50,309 nt of DNA from Shigella phage Sfin-3, in sequence record MN296515, one strand, 5' to 3'. This document shows positions 604 to 50,309 of this stretch, piece after piece. A program made the position numbers and the translations under genes. Each line of letters starts with the position of its first letter. Position 1 is the first letter of the stretch. Under the pieces are notes generated by a model that saw nothing but the letters and a program-made list of their open reading frames with translations, was not told the DNA's origin and searched no databases.

Positions 604-868
604 GATCAATCCTGTACATTTCATTGGTGTAATGAACGGAACCAAAACGGCAGAGTTCCGCATTAATGACCGCAACTTCCAGCTTGGCGATATCCTGGAG
701 CTATGCGAGTTCGATCGTGACGAGTTTACCGGGTGGGAAGTTCACGCCAGGGTGTCCGATGTTACAGACGTGACGCCATACATCAATCGCGGGTATGACG
801 ATCAGGAATGCGACTTCACGCAATACGTGATGTTATCAATCAAACCTTACAGGAAGGTTAGACCATGA
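581..868 (+). CDS. ASCH/DUF3850-like protein
   Basis: 95 aa; N-terminal KLKINPVHF...G.KT.EFR.NDR.FQ.GD pattern resembles ASCH/PUA-like DUF3850 domains; RBS gaggtaaag. Confidence 0.55.
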   Translation: MSKIHKLKINPVHFIGVMNGTKTAEFRINDRNFQLGDILELCEFDRDEFTGWEVHARVSDVTDVTPYINRGYDDQECDFTQYVMLSIKPYRKVRP

Positions 869-1503
869 AATTTGAATGCGTATCAAGTGACGGAACGGGA
901 TTTAAGTGGGGAAAAATCTACGAAGGCGCTCGCGTCAATAACGACAGCTTCGTTGTCGTGGATGAGCACGGTAGCAATGTGAACATCATCCGTCGTCACG
1001 AATACCAAGAAATTTTCCTGCCGTATGGCGGTAGTTCAAAATATATCTTCCATCGAATCGTGGATGGTGTTAAATTTAACGACGTAATCGAAGCAATCAA
1101 CCAACTGCATAATAAAGAGGTAAAATTTATGAAATTTGAATGTATCAGTGATAACACCAAAAAATTTACTGTTGGCAAAATCTACGACGTTCCTACTGAG
1201 CACGCAAAGCACACTGTAGCGCTTACTGACGACACGGGCCGTCACCGCATTGCTACCGTAACGCATAATGGCGAAGGTCTGCGATGGAATAGCGGCAGCA
1301 CTAAGTTTGCAACGTTCGGCAAGAAGCGTAAGCGCACTTTCTGCGTTAAAGGCAAGGTTGCAGCAAACAAGATCCACAACGTCAAGCCGTCGGAAGTTGA
1401 CAGCAAGCCAGCACTTAAGTTTGAAGATAAGGCAGATTTGTCTGGTCTGGCTATCGCTCTTGTTCTCCTGGTTGCTTCGATTTCTCTGATGTTCATCATG
1501 TAA
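865..1503 (+). CDS. tail-anchored membrane protein with internal tandem repeat
   Basis: 212 aa; two ~65 aa repeats each starting MKFEC(V/I)S...GKIY; C-terminal hydrophobic helix LAIALVLLVASISLMFIM. Confidence 0.6.
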   Translation: MKFECVSSDGTGFKWGKIYEGARVNNDSFVVVDEHGSNVNIIRRHEYQEIFLPYGGSSKYIFHRIVDGVKFNDVIEAINQLHNKEVKFMKFECISDNTKKFTVGKIYDVPTEHAKHTVALTDDTGRHRIATVTHNGEGLRWNSGSTKFATFGKKRKRTFCVKGKVAANKIHNVKPSEVDSKPALKFEDKADLSGLAIALVLLVASISLMFIM

Positions 1504-1510
1504 TTTTAAC

Positions 1511-1544
1511 GGGGAATCGGCTCTGAACGGTTCCCCTTTATTTT
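1511..1544 (+). terminator. rho-independent terminator candidate
   Basis: Stem GGGGAA/TTCCCC (1511-1516 / 1531-1536) with 14-nt loop, then TTTATTTT. Confidence 0.4.
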
Positions 1545-1556
1545 GGAGAAAACACT

Positions 1557-1667
1557 ATGCCAGACTTTTCTAACTGGAATAACGAGCCGCCATCATTTCA
1601 GGAGTTGCTATTCTGCCTCTTGGTCCTGACATTATCTCTTAAGGGTGTTTTATGGCTACTATCATGA
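1557..1667 (+). CDS. hypothetical small hydrophobic peptide (36 aa)
   Basis: ATG 1557 with GGAGA RBS directly after hairpin 1511-1544; hydrophobic LLFCLLVLTLSL; overlaps next ORF. Confidence 0.3.
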   Translation: MPDFSNWNNEPPSFQELLFCLLVLTLSLKGVLWLLS

Positions 1668-1870
1668 CAGCAGAAGATGCAGCACGCGACGCAGTGGAAG
1701 GAATGCGCCCAAATACCTCCAGAATAGCACACTACTACAAATCTGAGGTGTCGGCAGTGCAATTGGTCAACGAAATTTTAAGGCTGCCACAAGTCGATTC
1801 AGCGCGCGTGGTGACGTGCTTAAAAAATTATTTTTGCATCACTATTAAAACGAATAGCACGAATTGCTAA
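1652..1870 (+). CDS. hypothetical protein (72 aa)
   Basis: Track ORF; weak AGGG RBS; TAA stop lies inside promoter-module palindrome 1855-1869. Confidence 0.35.
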   Translation: MATIMTAEDAARDAVEGMRPNTSRIAHYYKSEVSAVQLVNEILRLPQVDSARVVTCLKNYFCITIKTNSTNC

Positions 1871-1927: not shown

Positions 1928-2374
1928 ATGAAACACTTAATCTGCATTGAAGCGCCTAACTATGAATACACTCTGCACGGCATTGGAATGTTCAAAGGCC
2001 ACTACATGACAGCAAGCATTTATGATGCGCATCGAGGCGATGGCGATCTAATGATTACTTCAAAAGAAGTTAATCCGTACATCATGCAGAATCTCGGGAA
2101 CAATGAGTATATGGCTTACGGATGCAACGCGGTGTACAAGCATATCAAGATCCGCAAGCGCGTAGTTCGCGCATTCAAGAAGATTGCAATTAAATACTGG
2201 AAGATGAGCAAGAAGGACGCCGGAACATGGGCGCGTAACGTTGCTGATTCATACTTCTATCGTAACGGTGAGTCGTGCTACTTTTTGATCGATGATATTC
2301 ATGACAATTACGGCGGCTCATTCAGTCAGGAAGAGTTTGATAGCTGGGCTGAATACGAGATCAGTTGCTGGTAA
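1928..2374 (+). CDS. hypothetical protein (148 aa)
   Basis: ATG 1928 with GAGGA RBS downstream of module 1855-1897; track ORF 1886 starts inside promoter hairpin. Confidence 0.6.
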   Translation: MKHLICIEAPNYEYTLHGIGMFKGHYMTASIYDAHRGDGDLMITSKEVNPYIMQNLGNNEYMAYGCNAVYKHIKIRKRVVRAFKKIAIKYWKMSKKDAGTWARNVADSYFYRNGESCYFLIDDIHDNYGGSFSQEEFDSWAEYEISCW

Positions 2375-2457: not shown

Positions 2458-2991
2458 ATGGATAAAATTACCATTTGGGGTCAAACTATCAACCTGTTTC
2501 TCGGCACGCGATGCGTGGCAATCTTTGACTTTGACGGAACGCTTAGTGATGGATCAAAGCGCCTTCACCTGTTGCCGACAAAGGATTTGCACTTAACTGA
2601 AAGCTGGTCTGAGTTTAACCGAGCGGCAATATTTGATAACCCAATCCAGAGCACGATTGAGGTTATGAACTCTATGTTTGCTGCCGGGTATCACGTAATA
2701 GTTTTAACCGGGCGAAGTGATGAGGTTCGTTACGCATCTGAGTTATGGCTTAAGCATCACGGTGCGAGATATGATTACTTAGTCATGCGACCGCACACAG
2801 ACAACAGGAAAGACACGGTGATGAAAGAAGAAGCGGTTCGAGCGATCGGTATTGAAAACATCCTGGCAGCTTGGGATGACTCACCGCAAATTATTCCATT
2901 ATTCCGGTCGCTTGGAATAACAACATATGCGGTAGTTGACTATGGCGATAACATTCACGATCATTTAAAATCGCACGGGGTAGAGAAATGA
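2458..2991 (+). CDS. HAD-family phosphatase, T4 Pnk 3'-phosphatase-domain-like
   Basis: 177 aa; IFDFDGTLSD (DxDGT motif), VIVLTGRSD, RKDTVMKEE align by eye to the C-terminal phosphatase domain of T4 polynucleotide kinase. Confidence 0.7.
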   Translation: MDKITIWGQTINLFLGTRCVAIFDFDGTLSDGSKRLHLLPTKDLHLTESWSEFNRAAIFDNPIQSTIEVMNSMFAAGYHVIVLTGRSDEVRYASELWLKHHGARYDYLVMRPHTDNRKDTVMKEEAVRAIGIENILAAWDDSPQIIPLFRSLGITTYAVVDYGDNIHDHLKSHGVEK

Positions 2992-3098
2992 ACCTATACG
3001 AATTTATTGCAGCACATCCGGTATTGACGGTTATCATCCTGCTAATCATCAATCACACCATCATCAATATGGCAAAATTATTTTTAGGGAGATACTAA
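2988..3098 (+). CDS. hypothetical small membrane peptide (36 aa)
   Basis: ATG overlaps upstream TGA (ATGA); hydrophobic core VLTVIILLIINHTII; not in ORF track. Confidence 0.3.
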   Translation: MNLYEFIAAHPVLTVIILLIINHTIINMAKLFLGRY

Positions 3099-3099
3099 T

Positions 3100-3672
3100 A
3101 TGAAAACAGCTATCATTTTAAACGGCGCTCCTGGAGCAGGCAAGGACACTATCGGATGCATCCTGGCTGACACTTACGATCATGTAGCTTTGCGCAGCTT
3201 CAAAGCACCAATGTTTGAGATTGCTCGGGCAATACTGGGTGAGGCTAACTACGAGTATTTCATGTTCTTGTATGAGGATCGTCGTTACAAAGAAGAGCCA
3301 GCGTCAATCCTGAACGGTAAAAGCCCTCGCCAGTTTATGATCTGGATTAGCGAGGAAGTCATCAAGCCACAGTTCGGAAATCGATTCTTCGGTATGCGAG
3401 CGGAAAGCAAGGTCAAAGAGTCATATTCTCTGTCAGTATTTACTGATGGTGGATTCAAAGATGAGGTATTGCAGATGATTGAAGGTGATATCCAGGTCAA
3501 GCTATGCCGAATCCACCGCAAAGGCTGCAACTTTGACAACGACAGTCGTGATTATATTTACCTGGAAGATATGATCGGGGTTAATGGTTATCAGGAGTGT
3601 GATTTTTTCTCTGTCGAAGGTCATCCAGAAATTACCGCTCAGCACATAGCCGCTACGTTCATCAACAAATAG
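3100..3672 (+). CDS. P-loop nucleotide kinase, dNMP kinase (T4 gp1)-like
   Basis: 190 aa; Walker A GAPGAGKDT and ILNGKSPRQ resemble T4 deoxynucleoside monophosphate kinase; TAG stop is first triplet of palindrome 3670-3684. Confidence 0.65.
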   Translation: MKTAIILNGAPGAGKDTIGCILADTYDHVALRSFKAPMFEIARAILGEANYEYFMFLYEDRRYKEEPASILNGKSPRQFMIWISEEVIKPQFGNRFFGMRAESKVKESYSLSVFTDGGFKDEVLQMIEGDIQVKLCRIHRKGCNFDNDSRDYIYLEDMIGVNGYQECDFFSVEGHPEITAQHIAATFINK

Positions 3673-4892: not shown

Positions 4893-5054
4893 ATGCAAAA
4901 TATCAAAAACGAATCAGTCAAAATCGAAATTAAAGTAACTCGCAACGGCAAAACAACTCTTTATAAAAAGCGGTTAAATCCTGGAGAGGCTGTTATTGGT
5001 CGCATCGATGGCGTTATGATTAAGGCGCAAGAAGATGAAGCGATTCAAAGTTAA
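4893..5054 (+). CDS. hypothetical small protein (53 aa)
   Basis: ATG 4893 with AAGAGGA RBS after 164-bp structured leader; below ORF-track cutoff. Confidence 0.45.
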   Translation: MQNIKNESVKIEIKVTRNGKTTLYKKRLNPGEAVIGRIDGVMIKAQEDEAIQS

Positions 5055-5220
5055 ATTGATCATTCGAAAGATGGGGATGTTTTGCCAATCATGCAAACAA
5101 TCTTTCGAGACTGAATTATCGGCAACCAGTCAGGCAGAAGCCATCGCGAAAGCAAAAAAACTTTCCGGCGCAAACCTTGACACTCACAAAATAAACATTG
5201 AATTAATTAAGGAGATCTAA
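5035..5220 (+). CDS. hypothetical small protein with CxxC
   Basis: Track ORF; overlaps previous ORF by 20 nt; alternative start MGMFCQSC possible. Confidence 0.4.
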   Translation: MKRFKVKLIIRKMGMFCQSCKQSFETELSATSQAEAIAKAKKLSGANLDTHKINIELIKEI

Positions 5221-5221
5221 C

Positions 5222-5449
5222 ATGGAAATTTTTTTATGGATTATCGCTGGTATCGTTATTTTTGGTGCTGGTTTATTTTCTGGCTTCGCACTTGTGGCGG
5301 CAGCAATTGCGATGGACGCGAAGGATAAAACTGGTGTATGGCTTACCTACTCACCAAAGACGGATCAATGGGAAATGACTGGCGATCTTGCTCACTGCTA
5401 CTCTAAAGCTCAGACCCACCCTAAAGGCATTAAACGACGATTATCGTGA
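5222..5449 (+). CDS. hypothetical membrane protein (75 aa)
   Basis: N-terminal hydrophobic helix IFLWIIAGIVIFGAGLFSGFALVAAAIA; followed by terminator 5460-5480. Confidence 0.5.
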   Translation: MEIFLWIIAGIVIFGAGLFSGFALVAAAIAMDAKDKTGVWLTYSPKTDQWEMTGDLAHCYSKAQTHPKGIKRRLS

Positions 5450-5533: not shown

Positions 5534-6058
5534 ATGAGTGAACCTAAGAACGCTCCCGTAGTTCAGGGTGGTAATTTCAAAGAGCTATACAAGAAAAAGT
5601 TCGGCACTGTTCTTGCGAAGAATCGGGCCATGACGCCTGAGCAATTATTCGATCTATCAGTTAAGTATTTCGAATGGGCTGAGGACAATGCGATCAAGGC
5701 GTCTGAATCAGCCAGCTTTCAGGGTGGCGTGTACGAATCTCTTGTTCATAAGCCTCGGGTGTTCACCTGGACAGGGTATCGACTATTCATCGGTGCAAGT
5801 GAGGCAGCTATCATTAAGTGGAAGCGAGAAGAGGAATATAGCGAGGTTATGGAGTTCGTGGAATCTGTAATCAACGAGCAAAAATTCCAACTTGCCGCCA
5901 ACGGTGTTATTAACGCCTCCTTTATCGGCAAGGATCTCGGGATCGATAAGCCAGCCTCAATCAATATCGAAAACTCAGCAGCTTCAGCATCTACCTCTGT
6001 TGCCACCACTGAGGATGCAATGAAAGAGGCAGTGAACAGCATTCTTGACATGCTTTAA
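5534..6058 (+). CDS. putative terminase small subunit
   Basis: Position directly upstream of TerL; ATG 5534 with AGAGGG RBS (track ORF 5510 starts inside palindrome 5501-5515); assignment by synteny only. Confidence 0.45.
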   Translation: MSEPKNAPVVQGGNFKELYKKKFGTVLAKNRAMTPEQLFDLSVKYFEWAEDNAIKASESASFQGGVYESLVHKPRVFTWTGYRLFIGASEAAIIKWKREEEYSEVMEFVESVINEQKFQLAANGVINASFIGKDLGIDKPASINIENSAASASTSVATTEDAMKEAVNSILDML

Positions 6059-26638: not shown

Positions 26639-26661
26639 GCCCCTTCCGGGGCTTTTCTTTT
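26639..26661 (+). terminator. rho-independent terminator at end of late operon
   Basis: GCCCC-ttcc-GGGGC then TTTTCTTTT; overlaps cor stop codon on the other strand. Confidence 0.6.
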
Positions 26662-26887
26662 ACATCGAGCAATCGTGAGACTTGAAGTTATTCTCTGATA
26701 CGTAATGGAATGAGAATGGATACCCAGCACGTAACAGCATCTCCTCTCCGCGCATCTTAGAGCCAAAAACGTAAACCGAGTACTCCGCGCCGCCTGATTC
26801 ATAAACTGCCGTACAAGTGCGCTCAGGCATTGATGAACAACCAGTCAGGATGAATGCCGCAGCAATAATGGTGATTAACTTTTTCAT
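26660..26887 (-). CDS. cor: Cor-like outer-membrane lipoprotein (FhuA-blocking superinfection exclusion)
   Basis: 75 aa; signal peptide plus lipobox LTGC; size, lipoprotein nature and position after tail genes match Cor of T1/phi80-type phages; own sigma70-like promoter. Confidence 0.65.
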   Translation of the reverse strand: MKKLITIIAAAFILTGCSSMPERTCTAVYESGGAEYSVYVFGSKMRGEEMLLRAGYPFSFHYVSENNFKSHDCSM

Positions 26888-39138: not shown

Positions 39139-39626
39139 TGAGTTTAAAAAATAACGTTATAGGCGCATCGATAGGGGCCGCTTTGACGTTGACGCCTACT
39201 CTACTGGAACGAATCGAAGGTATAGAGTACGAGGTGTATTACGATATCGCCGGAGTACCTACCGTATGCAGCGGAATAACCGGGCCGGACGTCATACCTG
39301 GTAAGAAATACACTAAGCGAGAATGCGATGCATTACTGATAAAACATATCGGCGTCGCTCAGCGATACGTTGACAAGAAGGTTAAGGTTGAAATTCCGGT
39401 AACGATGCGCGCCTCACTCTACAGCTTTACTTTCAACGTTGGTACTGGCGCATTCGGATCTTCTACAATGCTTAAGCTAATCAATCAGAGTAAGCACAAG
39501 GAGGCGTGCAATCAGTTATGGCGATGGGTATACTACTACAATCCAAAAACCAAAAAGCGCGAAGTGTCTAGAGGACTCAAGAACCGACGCGCTGAAGAAT
39601 ACGCGTATTGCGTTAAGGAATTATGA
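39138..39626 (+). CDS. SAR endolysin (T4-lysozyme-like muramidase, GH24-like)
   Basis: 162 aa; Gly/Ala-rich N-terminal signal-anchor [17 protein letters not shown]; catalytic E-x8-D-x5-T ([16 protein letters not shown]). Confidence 0.85.
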
Positions 39627-40027
39627 TGAAACTGAAGAAAACGTGCATTGCGATTGCGGTGGCTGTTGGCGTTATTTCTCTATCCGGTTGCTCGACGGCA
39701 TCTGCTCTGAGCGGTTTAATTGGATCTAAACCGGAAGTTACGGCGCAGATTGGAGAGGAGAACACAAAGCAATTAGCAGGAGTAACCGCAAAATCCGAAG
39801 ATAAGCGAGATGTTAAAGTTGAGAAGTCCAATGTAGGAAAGGTTGACTCTTCCGTGAAAAAATCAATTGAAGTGTCAACCATTAAGGCCAACACAGTTAA
39901 CGCTGAAAGCATCACAGTCACTAAGCCTGGTAATTGGTACGACGCAATAGTTGTATGCACTCTCGTTTTAATTGGTCTGTTGATGGTTTATTTTTCACTT
40001 CGTAAGGACGGAAAAAAGGAGGCCTAG
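39623..40027 (+). CDS. unimolecular spanin (lipoprotein with C-terminal TMD)
   Basis: 134 aa; signal peptide with lipobox LSGC and C-terminal [20 protein letters not shown]; architecture of T1 gp11-type u-spanin. Confidence 0.65.
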
Positions 40028-46448: not shown

Positions 46449-46754
46449 TTAACTTGTCACGACTGTAATATTTGTCTAGAATCGCACTTGTGACAAAATT
46501 ACGCACTGTGACGCATAACAATAGACATGTAGATATATGTATATATATAATATATATAGTGTTTTTTTATTTATATATATAGATAATCATATTGTAATGG
46601 TTGTGTATAGCCGTCTTACATTGTCTAGCGTACTGTTGGCATATTTCTATCTGCATGTTTATATATACAGTACTTTTTTGAGAGCCATATATTTCTATAT
46701 GGACCCTAGACAGCTAGACAAATGTTACACAGCTTAAAATTGGCTCGCAGGCAT

Positions 46755-46783
46755 TGACAGCCCTACATTGCGCCGTCACAATG
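46755..46783 (+). promoter_or_regulatory. weak sigma70-like promoter candidate (TTGACA-17-CACAAT)
   Basis: -35 46755-46760 perfect, -10 46778-46783 poor; in AT-rich region B upstream of gene 46842. Confidence 0.3.
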
Positions 46784-46841
46784 GCAATTGTTGACATGTT
46801 ATGACAACATTTACACATCAATAGACAAATAAGGATGAATT

Positions 46842-47357
46842 ATGAGCAATACCAATCAGGAATTAAAAATCACCGATATGATTCGACTAACCTGCGATGC
46901 AATGTACCGCGACAAAGGCATGACCGAGTTCTCTTTCGTGGCTGATGATATGGCCATCGAGGCCGCGCGATTCTACTTCCGTGGCCAGGAGGTAAGCGAT
47001 GCCGATCTTGAATCTGCCGCTGCCGGATGGGTGGACCAGAACCAGGGGGAGGTAGAGAAGAGATTCAAGTCCGCTTTCATTACTCCGATCATTACCCGGC
47101 ACTTTTGCAAGTACGGCAAGGTGGCAAAGGTGAAGGTAGGCCGGAATGACGCGGCAATCACAATGATAACCGTTATCGTTACAGACGAAGAGGTTCCAGT
47201 GAAGAAACGCCGTAGCCGGAAAAAAGTTAGCCTGGCCGACTGCCTGGATTCGTTTGATGTTGATGTTAGCAAGCTATCCGATAGCGAGTTAATGGTTCGT
47301 GATGTGAATGAGATCGTGCGCCAGATGAAAGCGCATATTGAAAAGTGTGGACTGTAA
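46842..47357 (+). CDS. hypothetical protein (171 aa)
   Basis: Track ORF; first gene after AT-rich region B; AAGGATGAA RBS. Confidence 0.6.
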   Translation: MSNTNQELKITDMIRLTCDAMYRDKGMTEFSFVADDMAIEAARFYFRGQEVSDADLESAAAGWVDQNQGEVEKRFKSAFITPIITRHFCKYGKVAKVKVGRNDAAITMITVIVTDEEVPVKKRRSRKKVSLADCLDSFDVDVSKLSDSELMVRDVNEIVRQMKAHIEKCGL

Positions 47358-47372
47358 CGCTGATAGGTGAAA

Positions 47373-47415
47373 TAGCACTTTTTGTTAAAGCTCGGTCGAG
47401 CGGATCGGGTATTAT
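47373..47415 (+). promoter_or_regulatory. composite promoter module (TAGCA-ctttt-TGTTA, 22 nt, -10 TATTAT)
   Basis: Palindrome 47373-47387; -10 47410-47415; ATG 47448. Confidence 0.55.
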
Positions 47416-47447
47416 CTTTTCATCGACACGATACAGAGGAAACGAAG

Positions 47448-47642
47448 ATGGAAACGCAAATTGACGTAGTGGTTGTTCAGCGGGACTCAACTCATGAAAA
47501 GGGTCTTTTCAAGAAAGGAACCGAAATCACGATCGACCTTGAGGATATGGTTGCGTATCACTCGGGCCTTACCTGGAACGTGGTGCGCGTAGGGAGCGAC
47601 TACAAACTCAAAGGCTTTAACACTTACTTTGCGGAGGCTTAA
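47448..47642 (+). CDS. hypothetical protein (64 aa)
   Basis: ATG 47448 with CAGAGGAAACGAAG RBS after module 47373-47415. Confidence 0.5.
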   Translation: METQIDVVVVQRDSTHEKGLFKKGTEITIDLEDMVAYHSGLTWNVVRVGSDYKLKGFNTYFAEA

Positions 47643-47644
47643 TC

Positions 47645-48115
47645 ATGGCGACAATTACCGTATTTCTTGCTAAAGATGAACTTGACGATGAAATGTCATT
47701 CTTCGCATTCGAGCACAAAACCGGATCGCACTGGCACACTTACAGCCATTACACGGTTATCTCAATCGAAGCGTACGACGGCGAACTGCTCACTGATAAA
47801 CTGAGTAATTTCATTGAAGCCGTTAAAGCTAGCGGCGGCTGCGAGTGGAAGGAAGATCACGAAGTTATGCGAATGCTTGAGATGGTCAATCCGGTTCGAC
47901 TTGAGTCTTTCGAGCTTGATTCTGACGTGAGCATTAAGGTGAGAAAGCCGGGTGAGTTGTTGCCGGGGATGCGTGTGCTGACTGGTTACTCAGGTCGTAA
48001 AGTGTGGCGAACCATATCGAAGATTCGCCAGCGTTCGGCAACATGCTATAGCGTATTCTTTGATGACGGCTGGAATGAGGTTGCTGGTAGTAACGTGAAG
48101 TATCTTACCAAATAG
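47645..48115 (+). CDS. hypothetical protein (156 aa)
   Basis: Track ORF; TAG stop is first triplet of palindrome 48113-48127. Confidence 0.55.
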   Translation: MATITVFLAKDELDDEMSFFAFEHKTGSHWHTYSHYTVISIEAYDGELLTDKLSNFIEAVKASGGCEWKEDHEVMRMLEMVNPVRLESFELDSDVSIKVRKPGELLPGMRVLTGYSGRKVWRTISKIRQRSATCYSVFFDDGWNEVAGSNVKYLTK

Positions 48116-48155
48116 CACGAATTGTTAAAACAGGATCGGGGTATCTTGCTATAGT
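48113..48155 (+). promoter_or_regulatory. composite promoter module (TAGCA-cgaat-TGTTA, 22 nt, -10 TATAGT)
   Basis: Palindrome 48113-48127; -10 48150-48155 inside hairpin 48138-48161; ATG 48194. Confidence 0.55.
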
Positions 48156-48193
48156 TACCCCATCAAAACGAGATACCAATCAGAGGATTCACC

Positions 48194-48424
48194 ATGTCAA
48201 TCGTCAAGAACCAACAAGCCATCGACTCAACCAGCCACAACCGCTTTGCTATTTTCATCACATCTATAGGTCGCCGATTTGCAGTTAAGGCCGCGCCTGG
48301 TGGATACAAAACATACATGGAGGATAACGGGAAATGGGTGTGGTGCGAAAACCTAGCCAACTTCCTGGTATGGAACGCAGACCTGCAAGGATTCGATGAT
48401 ATCAGCACTTTAATTGAGGAGTAA
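48194..48424 (+). CDS. hypothetical protein (76 aa)
   Basis: Track ORF; ACCAATCAGAGGA RBS; module 48113-48155 upstream. Confidence 0.5.
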   Translation: MSIVKNQQAIDSTSHNRFAIFITSIGRRFAVKAAPGGYKTYMEDNGKWVWCENLANFLVWNADLQGFDDISTLIEE

Positions 48425-48430
48425 ATAATA

Positions 48431-48658
48431 ATGCCACGTTACAGTAACCTAACCAAACTAGTCCGCGTCAACGGGCATATGATCCCGGCTAAATCTACTC
48501 ACTGCGCGAAAGGCGCAAAGCACGGATTATATTTCAAGTGGCGCGGTCAATGGAACTTCACGGCGGTGAGCAATTTTTACATGCGAGTTCCAGGTGATGA
48601 CCCGCAATCGGTAGTAGAAAACTCAATAGGTGACAACAAGATCGAGGTGCTAAAATGA
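48431..48658 (+). CDS. hypothetical protein (75 aa)
   Basis: Track ORF. Confidence 0.5.
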   Translation: MPRYSNLTKLVRVNGHMIPAKSTHCAKGAKHGLYFKWRGQWNFTAVSNFYMRVPGDDPQSVVENSIGDNKIEVLK

Positions 48659-48765
48659 ACTTCAATACAATAGCTCTATGGTCTGCCGTCTGGTTCTTCT
48701 GCATGGGTCACGTTATGGTCGGCATCGTGGTAATGCTTCCCCTGTGTGCGGGGGCGTTCGAATGA
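48655..48765 (+). CDS. hypothetical small membrane peptide (36 aa)
   Basis: ATG overlaps upstream TGA; hydrophobic ALWSAVWFFCMGHVMVGIVVMLPL; below ORF-track cutoff. Confidence 0.35.
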   Translation: MNFNTIALWSAVWFFCMGHVMVGIVVMLPLCAGAFE

Positions 48766-48935
48766 TGCGAATATTGATTTGCATGATGGCGGCTGTCGCC
48801 CTGGCTATCCTGGTAGTGTCCGGCTGCGGCGAGGTCAAAGAGCGATGCCATGAAACCGGGAGCCAGGCTACTACTTTCGTGATGGTTGGCAATGTTTTGC
48901 TACCAATCACATCAAATGAGATCACTTGCGAATAG
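48762..48935 (+). CDS. putative small lipoprotein (57 aa)
   Basis: ATG 48762 overlaps upstream stop (ATGATG); signal peptide with lipobox VVSGC; track ORF 48678 has a longer unsupported N-terminus. Confidence 0.45.
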   Translation: MMRILICMMAAVALAILVVSGCGEVKERCHETGSQATTFVMVGNVLLPITSNEITCE

Positions 48936-48944
48936 GATTTAACA

Positions 48945-49136
48945 ATGGCTGATTTTATGCACCAAATGATTGCAGTATTCAAAGGTAGTGAGGACCAGGA
49001 AGTGAAAGAGTGCTTTACCGTTGACAAGCCTTATAGTGCGTCGCTAACCAGCTTCGGTAACGTCTCATTGCTTGATGATAATGGCGACCCCTGGGTATTC
49101 GACGAAGATACTGATTGCTTCGAAATTAAAGAATAG
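48945..49136 (+). CDS. hypothetical protein (63 aa)
   Basis: Track ORF; TAG stop is first triplet of palindrome 49134-49148. Confidence 0.5.
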   Translation: MADFMHQMIAVFKGSEDQEVKECFTVDKPYSASLTSFGNVSLLDDNGDPWVFDEDTDCFEIKE

Positions 49137-49176
49137 CACTTTTTGTTAAAACTCAATTCCGGGGTTGCGATATAGT
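49134..49176 (+). promoter_or_regulatory. composite promoter module (TAGCA-ctttt-TGTTA, 22 nt, -10 TATAGT)
   Basis: Palindrome 49134-49148; -10 49171-49176 inside hairpin 49161-49182; ATG 49207. Confidence 0.55.
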
Positions 49177-49206
49177 AACCCCATCGATAACGAACGAGGA
49201 TTTATC

Positions 49207-49413
49207 ATGAAACTGCGGTGCATTGAATCAAATCAAATTAACTACTCAGAAGGCTTCGAATATGTCGCTCAAATCGATAGCTTTACAAACAAAAGCGGAG
49301 AGGTTATTGATGTGGTTCATGGAGTGTATACGTGGTTCTACTTTGACAAGAAAGCGCTAACAGCAACTAAGCACAATGGCGATGTGGTGGCTAAATTTAA
49401 ACGTGAACAATGA
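49207..49413 (+). CDS. hypothetical protein (68 aa)
   Basis: ATG 49207 with GAGGA RBS after module 49134-49176. Confidence 0.5.
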   Translation: MKLRCIESNQINYSEGFEYVAQIDSFTNKSGEVIDVVHGVYTWFYFDKKALTATKHNGDVVAKFKREQ

Positions 49414-49424
49414 GGATTGAAATC

Positions 49425-49913
49425 ATGAAAATTAAATTACTTTGCACTGGCGGTTACAAGGGCTTTACTCGCGACCTGGAATCTGACCCTATTATCGTTG
49501 ACGCCGTGAAGTGCGATGATAGCACGGGCGGCTACCGCGTAAAGGTCGATGACCTGGTTAAAGCTGGCGTGTACGATCTCGATTACGGCCTATCGGTTAG
49601 TCCAGTATTTGGCCCGGCTGACTTCAACGAGAATGACGGAACGATGTTCTTTTTTGAATGGGAAGTTCAGGCAAACATCAAGCCGCGAAAGGTTCGGCTT
49701 CTAAACAATGGCGGGTATCCTATGCGCCCTGGTTATGAGAATCGCACGTTCCCGGTTATTGTTGACTTTGAGGAAATTACCAGCACCCTGGCTTACGTTG
49801 GCAATGAACAACTCAATGCTGTAGGTTTTTGGGGTGGGATGAATAAAGAGTCACTTTGCTTCTTCCATCGCGACTCCGAACCGTTCTCTATTGAGTGCGA
49901 GCTAGTCTACTAA
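49425..49913 (+). CDS. hypothetical protein (162 aa)
   Basis: ATG 49425 with TGAGGATTGAAATC RBS (49410 alternative). Confidence 0.55.
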   Translation: MKIKLLCTGGYKGFTRDLESDPIIVDAVKCDDSTGGYRVKVDDLVKAGVYDLDYGLSVSPVFGPADFNENDGTMFFFEWEVQANIKPRKVRLLNNGGYPMRPGYENRTFPVIVDFEEITSTLAYVGNEQLNAVGFWGGMNKESLCFFHRDSEPFSIECELVY

Positions 49914-49954
49914 GCACGAATTGTTAAAAGTGGATTCGTCCTGACTGGTACAAT
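49912..49954 (+). promoter_or_regulatory. composite promoter module (AAGCA-cgaat-TGTTA, 22 nt, -10 TACAAT)
   Basis: Palindrome 49912-49926; -10 49949-49954; ATG 49985. Confidence 0.5.
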
Positions 49955-49984
49955 CCCCACATCGACCACTAAGAGGAAATCATT

Positions 49985-50309
49985 ATGTTGAAATTAAACG
50001 AGATTAAATTCCCTGTAGTTTTTAACACTATTAGCTGCGGTAAAATAACCTGCCATAGCAAAGAACGCGCGACAGACTCGTCACTTAATGAGTGTCACCC
50101 GTCGATTGTTTGCAATCTTATTGATTTGCACAACAAGCATAACCCCAACAATATTTCATCTCTTCCTTATTATGTTGAGTATGTTAGTTCTGGCTGGAAG
50201 ACTGGTCGAGCCATCTTTCACGCGGCAAAGCCAGAAATCAAGCCGATGCTACAATGCACTCAAATCGAGAACATGCCACTTAGCGCAACGCTAAAAGGTG
50301 TCCAGATTA
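49985..50309 (+). CDS. hypothetical protein, N-terminal fragment (runs off window end)
   Basis: ATG 49985 with AAGAGGAAA RBS after module 49912-49954; frame open to window end; track ORF 50088-50294 in another frame judged spurious. Confidence 0.45.
   Translation, partial: MLKLNEIKFPVVFNTISCGKITCHSKERATDSSLNECHPSIVCNLIDLHNKHNPNNISSLPYYVEYVSSGWKTGRAIFHAAKPEIKPMLQCTQIENMPLSATLKGVQI

Follow-up and report, generated by a model that had tools for sequence, protein, structure and literature searches.

The two short overlapping open reading frames at 48655..48935 of Shigella phage Sfin-3, a T1-like phage of the genus Tunavirus, are both protein-coding, and the sequence of the second product places it as the predicted lipid-anchored Tunavirus form of a small phage protein family that includes SPP1 ORF53 and peptides of Herelleviridae. 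We are highly confident that both are real genes with the architecture set out below, a 36-residue membrane peptide followed by a 57-residue prolipoprotein. Neither gene is new, as both were annotated in phage T1 in 2004 (orf73 = CPTT1_005 and orf72 = CPTT1_006), appear in phage LeonhardEuler as Bas13_0062 and Bas13_0063, and belong to PHROG 25570 and 8628, respectively. We are inclined to see the pair as an envelope-directed accessory effector, and the best explanation overall, to which we would give slightly better than even chances, is a translationally coupled accessory gene pair that acts through a hairpin tethered in the cell envelope.

The window analyzed here is the whole 50,309-nucleotide stretch of Sfin-3 DNA (sequence record MN296515). 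The genes and elements on which the argument draws are as follows.

48110..48164, plus strand: intergenic repeat 5′ of the five-gene unit, repeat families D1 and D3
48431..48658, plus strand: upstream 75-residue gene (Pfam DUF7274, phrog_6080; dN/dS 0.154)
48644..48649, plus strand: Shine-Dalgarno-like GAGGTG, 5 nt before ATG 48655, read from the sequence
48655..48765, plus strand: gene for a hydrophobic single-span membrane peptide of 36 residues (T1 orf73, phrog_25570), product MNFNTIALWSAVWFFCMGHVMVGIVVMLPLCAGAFE
48762..48935, plus strand: gene for a predicted prolipoprotein of 57 residues (T1 orf72, phrog_8628), product MMRILICMMAAVALAILVVSGC joined to GEVKERCHETGSQATTFVMVGNVLLPITSNEITCE
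48762..48824, plus strand: predicted signal peptide, residues 1-21, MMRILICMMAAVALAILVVSG; residues 2-22 are helical in the AF2 model
48813..48827, plus strand: lipobox V18-V-S-G-C22 of the 57-residue protein, PS51257 pattern
48825..48932, plus strand: predicted mature lipopeptide C22-E57, 36 residues, Gly at +2, with cleavage before Cys22
48852..48929, plus strand: beta-hairpin in the AF2 model, residues 31-42 and 45-56, with Cys29 and Cys56 at its base
48945..49136, plus strand: downstream 63-residue gene, last of the five-gene unit (phrog_11551)
49131..49185, plus strand: intergenic repeat closing the five-gene unit, repeat families D1 and D3

The junctions between these genes are as the initial annotation described them. 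The TGA of the 75-residue ORF and ATG 48655 overlap as ATGA, and the TGA of the 36-residue ORF (48763-48765) overlaps in the same way with ATG 48762, the first ATG of the ATGATG that opens the 57-residue ORF. The GAGG core preceding the 36-residue ORF is present across all aligned loci. The repeat at 48110..48164 has the form AATAGCAC-N5-TTGTTAAAAC, followed by a GGGGT/ACCCC hairpin enclosing TGcTATAGT, and the SA32RD and SA12KD records label equivalent sites as rho-independent terminators. A promoter and terminator scan gave site counts no higher than in shuffled sequence, with none adjoining the pair, and neither strand of 46500..50309 had a match in Rfam. The location of the pair in the right arm, claimed earlier, is accurate within the window; on the T1 map, however, the same genes lie at the left end (1992..2272).

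The lipoprotein signal of the 57-residue protein was assessed against PROSITE rule PS51257, which combines a Lys or Arg in the first 7 residues, an uncharged hydrophobic h-region, and then the lipobox [LIVMFWSTAG](2)-[LIVMFYSTAGCQ]-[AGS]-C with its Cys at position 15-35. The protein conforms throughout, with Arg3, an uncharged stretch from residue 4 to 21 (top 19-residue hydropathy window 2.75), and V18-V19-S20-G21-C22, bearing out the signal peptide and lipobox first read at this site. The bare lipobox pattern occurs at 21 six-frame ORF starts in the window, or about 16 places when nested starts are counted once, and is therefore weak evidence by itself. Family support exists at just three of these places, namely the 57-residue ORF and the two envelope proteins already known to be encoded by the phage, as the initial annotation had noted: a unimolecular spanin (u-spanin; 39626..40027) and Cor (26887..26660, minus strand).

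Selection provides a further line of evidence. Our comparison set comprised 30 sequences (the window and 29 fetched loci), of which 27 intact Tunavirus loci formed the coding test set. A rule-conforming lipobox is found in 24 of these 27, despite synonymous codon variation at S20 (TCC/TCA), G21 (GGC/GGA/GGT), and C22 (TGC/TGT), which argues that selection acts on the motif itself. The lipobox is thus both present and under selection, and a UniRef entry already gives this protein the name "Lipoprotein". Judged by its sequence, the product is likely to be a true lipoprotein in Tunavirus.

It could instead be that the lipobox is unused or unneeded, and that the product is a signal-anchored, N-in/C-out single-pass protein of the cytoplasmic membrane, acting at the periplasmic face of that membrane, perhaps via helix-helix contact with the 36-residue peptide. 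We consider this unlikely, although several observations are consistent with it. All deeper relatives (P0021, P0029, SPP1 gp53, the Tsarbombavirus peptide, and P0024) have helix anchors, and the helix ILICMMAAVA is conserved even where there is no lipobox, with P0021 and P0029 retaining ILICMMAAVAI in the absence of the lipobox cysteine. The Cys within the helix is nearly invariant across the whole family, the dN/dS of the signal peptide (0.107) is not above that of the mature part (0.162), and the divergent locus L046 combines the 36-residue peptide with a partner that has no lipobox. Moreover, three full-length natural variants break the lipobox (DELF2 C22F, SH6 G21V, and ISF001 V19E, the last in a protein with several odd charged substitutions), and IME18 has Asp at +2, an inner-membrane retention signal, which together suggest that the lipid anchor or outer-membrane sorting may be non-essential. 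These lipobox-breaking variants are, however, single records that could be sequencing errors or decaying copies, and they must be set against the 24 conforming loci. A canonical n-h-lipobox sequence is also normally processed in E. coli, which further counts against an unused motif.

Apart from its anchor, the protein is defined by its C-terminal domain. It matches phrog_8628 at E 6.6e-29 (residues 1-57 on profile positions 6-65 of 66), and the same profile matches SPP1 gp53 (4.6e-29), the Tsarbombavirus peptide (1.1e-33), P0021 (8.8e-17), and P0024 (4.2e-11). A profile of the Tunavirus-clade mature domain alone reached P0024 at E 6.8e-4 among 1.84 billion proteins, a tblastn search with P0024 recovered SPP1-type and BCP78-type proteins (2e-4 to 9e-4), and hhalign of the Tunavirus-clade against the Bacillus-phage alignment gave a probability of 95.4% (E 2e-8, residues 31-57). 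At the level of sequence, these comparisons establish the relationship of the 57-residue protein to hairpin proteins of Gram-positive phages. The architecture common to phrog_8628, an N-terminal hydrophobic anchor and a C-terminal hairpin with the motif C...T...T...G...P-I-T...C, is found in the window protein, and in a 25-sequence alignment T32, T37, G43, P48, and C56 are invariant and C29, I49, and T50 nearly so. Two independent AF2 models, of the window protein (pLDDT 72) and an SPP1-type homolog (pLDDT 84), both predict a helix followed by a long beta-hairpin. The hairpin as a whole is near-invariant among Tunavirus genomes, its variable patch having KERCHE and RDSCHK alleles, and its tip, TTFVMVGNVLLPIT, is hydrophobic and likewise nearly invariant. 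The models suggest that the defining domain of phrog_8628 is a two-cysteine beta-hairpin located outside the cytoplasm, in which a Cys29-Cys56 disulfide is plausible; in the window model, which is of moderate confidence, the register of Cys29 and Cys56 is off by two residues.

Searches in other collections add little to this family. A sequence profile search of the PDB produced nothing beyond noise on the hydrophobic helix, Foldseek found no PDB match below E 2.6 and, in BFVD, members of the same family only, and scans of both products against Pfam, NCBIfam, and PADLOC found nothing significant (the best was an LptM signal-sequence model at E 0.14). No copies were found outside phages among 5,426 E. 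coli genomes, plasmids, and GTDB representative genomes, and a search of IMG/VR for remote relatives yielded none beyond the known genomes. The first helix of P0024, a homolog with two transmembrane segments, was considered as a fused version of the 36-residue peptide on the strength of a common 'TIAL', an idea that was dropped because BLASTP produced no alignment between the two.

The initial annotation read the 57-residue product as a second receptor-masking exclusion lipoprotein of the Cor/Llp/Rtp45 kind, which from the inner leaflet of the outer membrane would block FhuA or another receptor from the periplasm, with the 36-residue peptide as a helper. The product is indeed small and, with Gly at +2, predicted to be an outer-membrane lipoprotein, the gene has repeatedly been lost in nature, as is usual for competition genes, and the lipobox is a Tunavirus-specific gain under selection, which fits a newly acquired outer-membrane target. 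In addition, its size (about 4 kDa when mature) is near that of known exclusion lipoproteins of small siphophages, Rtp45 being about 6 kDa (PMC12685063; PMC9586334). Nevertheless, the Cor family, phrog_1119, is absent among the matches to E 1, and BLASTP against the window Cor gave no alignment; by sequence, the protein has no relationship to Cor. The two genes are also about 22 kb apart. Cor lies in the tail region (26660..26887), and the 57-residue gene at 48762 sits among small uncharacterized genes, away from the receptor-binding protein locus and thus not in the location typical of Cor, beside receptor-binding or tail-tip genes.

The hairpin is also common to Bacillus phages and to relatives anchored in the cytoplasmic membrane, and these proteins are unable to reach an outer-membrane receptor. 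Gram-positive bacteria lack both an outer membrane and FhuA, and the occurrence of homologs in phages that infect them counts against FhuA masking being the core role of the family. A hairpin that crosses the Gram divide on interchangeable helix and lipid anchors leaves fewer plausible targets and speaks against simple FhuA masking. The near-invariance of the hairpin among Tunavirus genomes and the persistence of the lipobox-breaking and +2 Asp variants as intact ORFs also tell against receptor masking, which we now regard as improbable.

The 36-residue product is as hydrophobic as first described, with a GRAVY of 1.46, no Lys or Arg, and a top 19-residue hydropathy window of 2.18. It matches phrog_25570 at E 2.7e-26 (residues 1-36 on profile positions 1-36 of 36), and by tblastn is seen solely in Tunavirus, in 54 records. 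The T1 record notes one transmembrane segment for orf73. The substitution L29P is unique to the window copy. Across the 27 intact loci, dN/dS is 0.055 for the 36-residue ORF, the lowest value and thus the strongest purifying selection within the five-gene unit, and 0.14 for the 57-residue ORF. Third codon positions hold most of the variable sites, the numbers at positions 1/2/3 being 11/6/26 and 17/16/38, respectively. Of the 30 compared sequences, which diverge by up to about 20% in nucleotides, 27 have the ORFs intact, and the shorter ORF is 36 residues long in all but one of the 30 (40 in vB_SsoS_008). At two loci (L006 and L018) the start of the 57-residue ORF reads ATGATT, with the second ATG gone and the first kept.

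The ORF lister gives the lipoprotein gene solely as an 85-residue ORF (48678..48935), a mis-start to which the initial annotation had drawn attention. In that frame, dN/dS is about 3 across the 36-residue region, which rules out the 85-residue reading and makes ATG 48762 the real start. Antisense ORFs at 48713..49027 and 48558..48704 (minus strand) were ruled out by codon-position pattern and dN/dS.

The two genes, first described as a pair, are not always found together. A divergent locus, L042, encodes the hairpin protein without the peptide gene, the DUF7274 75-residue gene there lying directly 5′ of the hairpin gene, and in L010 a deletion has removed the 57-residue hairpin gene together with the 63-residue gene and left the peptide gene in place. 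EF3-1 carries a 4-nt frameshift, vB_SsoS_008 a decayed copy, three homologs (P0019, P0020, and P0022) are frameshifted, and P0030 is a deletion chimera. Such natural deletions and frameshifts show that the genes are dispensable in nature. At the same time, the ATGA junction is kept in every Tunavirus locus in which both genes are intact, and in the more divergent L046. ATGA overlaps are frequent among the small genes of this arm, so that coupling is weak evidence for the two products acting together.

This raises the question of whether the 36-residue ORF encodes an independent membrane-active peptide that merely neighbors the lipoprotein gene, for example, a depolarizing or type-I-toxin-like peptide, a holin/antiholin modulator, or a regulator of host membrane proteins like the small membrane proteins of E. 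coli. The extreme hydrophobicity and lack of basic residues would suit such a role, as would the strong purifying selection on this ORF, the separate fates of the two genes in L010 and L042, and the presence of other 36-residue membrane ORFs in the arm (1557..1667 and 2988..3098). The conserved junction is, however, difficult to square with mere proximity, the lysis cassette (holin, endolysin, and u-spanin) sits elsewhere in the genome, and no described family resembles the peptide, so that we think this reading has a rather small chance of being correct. Finally, the possibility that one or both ORFs are chance frames or coupling-only spacers with no functional product, which might be raised from their shortness, the roughly 16 chance lipobox places, and the absence of the 36-residue ORF from many GenBank records, was already disfavored and is scarcely credible given a dN/dS far under 1 for precisely these frames, against about 3 for their competitor, the intactness of the ORFs at such divergence, and the retention of peptide sequence motifs by divergent homologs.

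Returning to the coupled pair with a tethered hairpin, the following mechanism may be envisaged. The single-span 36-residue peptide would stay in the cytoplasmic membrane, and the 57-residue prolipoprotein would be exported by Sec, lipidated at Cys22 by Lgt, cleaved by LspA, and N-acylated by Lnt. The resulting 36-residue lipopeptide would be built around a beta-hairpin with two strands of 12 residues each, probably held together by the Cys29-Cys56 disulfide. Under the E. coli sorting rule, a lipopeptide with Gly at +2 is expected to be moved to the outer membrane, in its inner leaflet. In SPP1 ORF53, the Herelleviridae peptides, and the closest non-Tunavirus relatives, the hairpin would instead be tethered by a transmembrane helix at the outer face of the cytoplasmic membrane, suggesting that the Tunavirus lineage swapped a helix anchor for a lipid anchor. 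Such a relocation of the domain, out of the cytoplasmic membrane and into the outer one, fits poorly with a single conserved target. We would guess that the hairpin tip binds an extracytoplasmic envelope component, possibly by strand addition, and thereby alters the envelope of the infected cell early in infection, with the two proteins perhaps cooperating. Early expression of the pair is suggested by its position and by analogy with SPP1, in which ORFs 46-53 have been described as an early, dispensable set controlled by promoter PE1, with membrane insertion predicted for ORF53 (PMC6316719).

The phenotype, again as a guess, would be a dispensable competition-type function, either inhibiting a host envelope machine or providing exclusion or protection at some stage that does not involve masking of FhuA. 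Superinfection exclusion at a non-receptor envelope step, or an envelope-modulating role, is possible, and exclusion of other phages specifically strikes us as doubtful. Exclusion, control of lysis, and host takeover are roles that often emerge for small envelope proteins of this type.

It is tempting to speculate further that the phrog_8628 hairpin is a pan-phage extracytoplasmic effector, used against Gram-positive and Gram-negative hosts alike, that docks onto a conserved envelope machine by beta-strand addition through its invariant hydrophobic strand-turn-strand. The switch from helix to lipid would then have moved the hairpin to the inner face of the outer membrane, with the 36-residue membrane partner recruited along the way. 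We regard this as a long shot. In a more specific form of the idea, strand 1 (Q-V-T-T-F-V-M-V-G) has a likeness to the TonB boxes of TonB-dependent transporters (e.g., D-T-I-T-V-T-A in FhuA), and the lipopeptide could sequester the C-terminal domain of TonB, shutting off all TonB-dependent entry of phages and colicins after T1 infection; the Gram-positive homologs speak against this as the ancestral role.

The overall significance of these results is small. T1 belongs to the classical phages, and many small genes of this arm are still uncharacterized. The T1, LeonhardEuler, and PHROG entries all read 'hypothetical protein' or 'unknown function', and our literature searches found no function reported for T1 orf72/73, SPP1 ORF53, or the Bas13 genes. 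In practical terms, the 36-residue ORF is real yet omitted from most of the annotated genome records examined (it is called in 4 of 17), and the lipoprotein gene should be started at ATG 48762. Were a phenotype to emerge, the family would supply a natural envelope-component binder of very small size (about 35 residues).

The gene pairs of T1 and LeonhardEuler have the same lengths, the same order after the DUF7274 gene, and the same ATGA overlaps as in Sfin-3. The LeonhardEuler 57-residue protein is 100% identical and its 36-residue peptide 97.2% identical to those of Sfin-3, and the corresponding values for T1 are 89.5% and 83.3%. The sole difference in design is the unique Leu29-to-Pro in the Sfin-3 peptide. 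In its working principle only, the pair also resembles Imm and Sp of T4, a membrane protein and a membrane-tethered periplasmic protein that jointly give superinfection immunity, in that both systems would pair two small, early, non-essential envelope proteins of a virulent phage, one embedded in the inner membrane and the other facing the periplasm; the T4 proteins are, however, larger and genomically unlinked.

Two-component spanins of the Rz/Rz1 type are likewise encoded by two genes that overlap, one specifying an inner-membrane protein and the other a small lipoprotein of the outer membrane. That reading was rejected: the pair lies outside the lysis cassette, the 36-residue peptide has no soluble domain or periplasmic coiled coil, the mature lipopeptide is not proline-rich as an o-spanin (it has one Pro), and a unimolecular spanin (phrog_1804) is already encoded at 39626..40027. 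A holin reading of the pair was ruled out on location and architecture.

Cor (T1, phi80), Llp (T5), and Rtp45 (Rtp) are also small phage lipoproteins, with a predicted or demonstrated location at the periplasmic face of the outer membrane, and Llp has paired cysteines in its mature part, as does the 57-residue protein. These exclusion proteins are, however, about 6-7 kDa and encoded beside the receptor-binding protein gene, whereas the 57-residue product is a single hairpin of about 4 kDa when mature, is not so placed, has no sequence relationship to them, and has homologs of its hairpin domain in Gram-positive phages. Among those homologs, SPP1 ORF53 (68 residues) and the Tsarbombavirus 'secreted or membrane anchored peptide' (71 residues) share the C-terminal two-cysteine hairpin, the AF2 architecture, and the PHROG, and they too are small, have an N-terminal hydrophobic anchor, lie among small early genes, and are dispensable (PMC6316719). 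They differ in serving Gram-positive hosts, in having a transmembrane helix anchor with no lipobox, and in carrying a 7-residue insertion (GG-x3-G-T-G) before the first strand that is absent from the Tunavirus form. Their loci have different adjacent membrane genes and no homolog of the 36-residue peptide, the Tsarbombavirus gene instead overlapping a downstream 'putative holin' with two transmembrane segments.

The stretch is a T1-like phage genome (genus Tunavirus). Around the two small genes considered here, identity is 96.5% with Escherichia phage LeonhardEuler (Bas13) and 86.5% with T1. Three features of this region are central:

48431..48658, plus strand: 75-aa upstream gene, Pfam DUF7274; its TGA overlaps ATG 48655
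48655..48765, plus strand: 36-aa ORF, protein MNFNTIALWSAVWFFCMGHVMVGIVVMLPLCAGAFE; its TGA overlaps ATG 48762
48762..48935, plus strand: 57-aa ORF, protein MMRILICMMAAVALAILVVSGCGEVKERCHETGSQATTFVMVGNVLLPITSNEITCE

Reading of the sequence together with the ORF list confirmed the gene structure proposed in the initial annotation, with a hydrophobic 36-aa ORF whose ATG overlaps the upstream stop codon and a 57-aa ORF whose ATG overlaps the TGA of the first. The mis-start suspected for the lipoprotein gene was also borne out, as the mechanical ORF list gives it solely as an 85-aa ORF from 48678. The 36-aa peptide has a GRAVY of 1.46 and no basic residues; the DUF7274 product is basic in character and has two conserved cysteines. 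Many small genes in this arm overlap by ATGA, among them the DUF7274 and peptide genes, and coupling alone therefore says little about a common function of peptide and lipoprotein.

Comparison of 30 distinct sequences, comprising the window and 29 other loci from GenBank records, IMG/VR contigs and metagenome assemblies, indicates that both ORFs are under purifying selection as proteins. Of the 30, 29 carry the peptide ORF at 36 codons and 27 have an intact 57-aa ORF. Across those 27 loci, variable sites at codon positions 1, 2 and 3 number 11/6/26 in the peptide ORF and 17/16/38 in the lipoprotein ORF, with a mean dN/dS of 0.055 and 0.14, respectively (0.154 for the upstream gene). Third-position bias and low dN/dS in exactly these two frames dispose of chance ORFs, and the 85-aa extension was rejected as coding because dN/dS across the peptide region rises to about 3 in its frame. 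ATG 48762 is retained in two loci that have lost the second ATG (ATGATT). Codon 29 of the peptide ORF (48739-48741) is CCC (Pro) in the window and CTC (Leu) in 29/29 other loci; the substitution, which may be genuine or an error of sequencing, puts a proline towards the end of the transmembrane helix.

Both genes had been catalogued before. In the T1 reference record, which cites the 2004 genome paper, the peptide is CPTT1_005 (orf73, 36 aa; 'single transmembrane domain predicted N-in and C-out') and the lipoprotein is CPTT1_006 (orf72, 57 aa); their LeonhardEuler names are bas13_0062 and bas13_0063. They belong only to phrog_25570 (peptide) and phrog_8628 (lipoprotein), both annotated as unknown function, and the Shfl1 orthologue of the latter is titled 'Lipoprotein' in its UniRef entry. 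The 57-aa gene is called in 14 of 17 annotated records and the 36-aa gene in just four; the peptide gene is thus commonly missed, yet not new. Within the phage collection, both are limited to Tunavirus (53-54 records), and no copies were detected in 5,426 E. coli genomes, plasmids or GTDB representatives, such that the genes are restricted to phage genomes.

The signal peptide and lipobox claimed for the 57-aa product held up, as it matches the PROSITE PS51257 lipoprotein rule with Cys22 as the predicted lipidated residue. A bare lipobox pattern is not rare (21 matches among six-frame ORF starts of the window, at about 16 separate places), and family support exists at just three of these places, namely the lipoprotein gene and the unimolecular spanin and Cor genes that the phage was already said to carry. 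The lipobox itself is under selection, since its codons vary synonymously (S20, TCC 18 / TCA 9; G21, GGC 16 / GGA 6 / GGT 4; C22, TGC 21 / TGT 5). A signal-anchored inner-membrane form stays a live rival to a simple outer-membrane lipoprotein, because three natural variants of full length carry a broken lipobox (C22F in DELF2, G21V in SH6, V19E in ISF001), the IME18 protein has Asp at +2 (G23D; variant sites align to window 48813-48830), and conservation of the signal-peptide helix equals that of the mature part (dN/dS 0.107 vs 0.162), with a cysteine within the helix nearly invariant across the whole family. The ISF001 copy carries several further charged substitutions in helix and hairpin, as if decaying or poorly sequenced.

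The wider family bears on the anchor. Only 22 relatives were found among 5.8 billion proteins; in one of them, P0021 (58 aa), the N-terminal helix and C-terminal domain are retained and the lipobox cysteine is missing. A mature-domain profile run against 1.84 billion representatives gave one further credible relative (P0024, E 6.8e-4; 99 aa, two transmembrane helices), encoded by a high-GC element that bears an integrase. P0024 in turn matches gene 53 of Bacillus phage SPP1 and, in Tsarbombavirus and BCP78-type Bacillus myophages, a conserved peptide (E 2e-4 to 9e-4). Full-length matches to phrog_8628 include SPP1 gp53 (4.6e-29), the Tsarbombavirus peptide (1.1e-33), P0024 (4.2e-11) and P0021 (8.8e-17), and profile-profile alignment of the Tunavirus clade with the Bacillus-phage proteins gave a probability of 95.4% (E 2e-8) over the last 27 residues. 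The common core is C29...T32...T37...G43...P48-I-T50...C56. AlphaFold2 models of the window lipoprotein (helix 2-22, strands 31-42 and 45-56, pLDDT 72) and of the SPP1-type protein (helix 3-33, strands 37-50 and 56-67, pLDDT 84) both place one long beta-hairpin after an N-terminal membrane helix, and the two conserved cysteines lie at the base of the hairpin; neither model resembles solved structures or viral models beyond the family. The family thus comprises hairpins tethered to the membrane, probably stapled by a disulfide, and lying outside the cytoplasm. Its ancestral anchor was a helix, and the lipobox was gained in the Tunavirus lineage.

The peptide and lipoprotein, described initially as a pair, do not form a fixed unit. 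In L042, a more distant T1-like phage, the DUF7274 gene is followed directly by a helix-anchored hairpin gene and the 36-aa ORF is absent, and in the IMG/VR contig 3300045988_004116 the 57-aa gene and the 63-aa gene downstream of it are deleted between two GAAT(G/A) sites and the peptide gene is kept. This deletion, aligned to window 48760-49135, joins GAATGATG (end of the 36-aa ORF) to GAATAGCAC (end of the 63-aa ORF), and the peptide gene now terminates in TAG. On another contig, L046, the hairpin gene (P0029) is helix-anchored and follows, through an ATGA junction, a diverged 36-aa ORF (MNFNILAFWAAMWFFVVGHVLVGAIVLILLCAGAFE), so the peptide joined before the lipobox arose. Further natural lesions include a 4-nt insertion in EF3-1, a decayed copy in vB_SsoS_008, and frameshifts in P0019, P0020 and P0022. 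P0030 (103 aa, on a 49,985-base contig) is a natural chimera that starts with the N-terminal ~37 residues of the lipoprotein precursor and ends with the C-terminal ~65 residues, tail anchor included, of a 212-aa protein (window 865..1503); the join lies at a common T(K/T)F(A/V) stretch and implies deletion of everything between the two genes. These natural deletions, frameshifts and decayed copies show that the genes are dispensable for plaque formation, in agreement with the published description of SPP1 ORFs 46-53 as early genes that can be dispensed with, among them ORF53, a predicted membrane-inserted protein (PMC6316719).

Small membrane ORFs and intergenic repeats also occur elsewhere in the window:

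1557..1667, plus strand: second 36-aa membrane ORF, MPDFSNWNNEPPSFQELLFCLLVLTLSLKGVLWLLS; overlaps the start of a 72-aa gene (1652..1870, plus strand, phrog_11330)
2988..3098, plus strand: third 36-aa ORF, with hydrophobic core, MNLYEFIAAHPVLTVIILLIINHTIINMAKLFLGRY; its ATG overlaps the upstream stop codon
47370-47398, 48110-48164, 49131-49185 and 49910-49963, plus strand: intergenic repeat, starting from the stop codon of the gene before it
44848, 45313, 46216 and 46421: reverse-oriented repeat core, palindromic TAGCA-N5-TGCTA, further left in the window

The ORF at 1557..1667 and its neighbor are the counterparts of T1 CPTT1_011/012, the one at 2988..3098 lies between a 177-aa gene (2458..2991) and a 190-aa gene (3100..3672), and neither of the two 36-aa ORFs matched a PHROG at E up to 0.001. 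Outside Tunavirus, the hairpin gene of Bacillus phage 0524phi7-1 (Tsarbombavirus; 1399..1614) overlaps a two-TM 'putative holin' (1611..1859) by ATGA, and the high-GC element encodes its two-TM hairpin protein at 5001..5300 and a 33-aa membrane ORF two genes downstream (5749..5850). This may be a recurrent association of the hairpin gene with extra membrane segments, or just a consequence of how densely small membrane genes are packed in the early regions of phages. The repeat comprises AATAGCAC-N5-TTGTTAAAAC and then a GGGGT/ACCCC hairpin around an extended-minus-10-like TGcTATAGT; some GenBank records mark its sites as rho-independent terminators, though no T-run follows, and it could be a promoter, terminator or operator.

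Position, flanking intergenic repeats and the SPP1 analogy suggest early expression within a five-gene unit (48194..49136). From established lipoprotein biology, the lipoprotein would be exported by Sec, processed at Cys22 by Lgt/LspA/Lnt and, as residue +2 is Gly and not Asp, transferred to the outer membrane by Lol, with a putative periplasmic Cys29-Cys56 disulfide. It is tempting to speculate that the tip of the hairpin, hydrophobic and nearly invariant (TTFVMVGNVLLPIT), binds some component of the envelope, and perhaps the envelope of the infected cell is thereby changed in an accessory, competition-type manner. Of the earlier interpretation, the structural part, coding genes and a lipobox, is supported; the functional part is conjectural and in some respects disfavoured. 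A Cor-like mask is unlikely, as the lipoprotein has no similarity to Cor, its gene, unlike those of Cor, Llp and Rtp45 (PMC12685063), is not beside receptor-binding genes, and the hairpin is common to phages of hosts that lack an outer membrane.

Nothing in the pair would surprise a specialist; the hairpin family, which is cross-phylum and has interchangeable anchors, is a tidy lead for work on T1 or SPP1 early genes. Among known systems, the small exclusion lipoproteins of siphophages and, for peptide plus lipoprotein, the T4 Imm/Sp pair are the nearest analogies, in working principle only.
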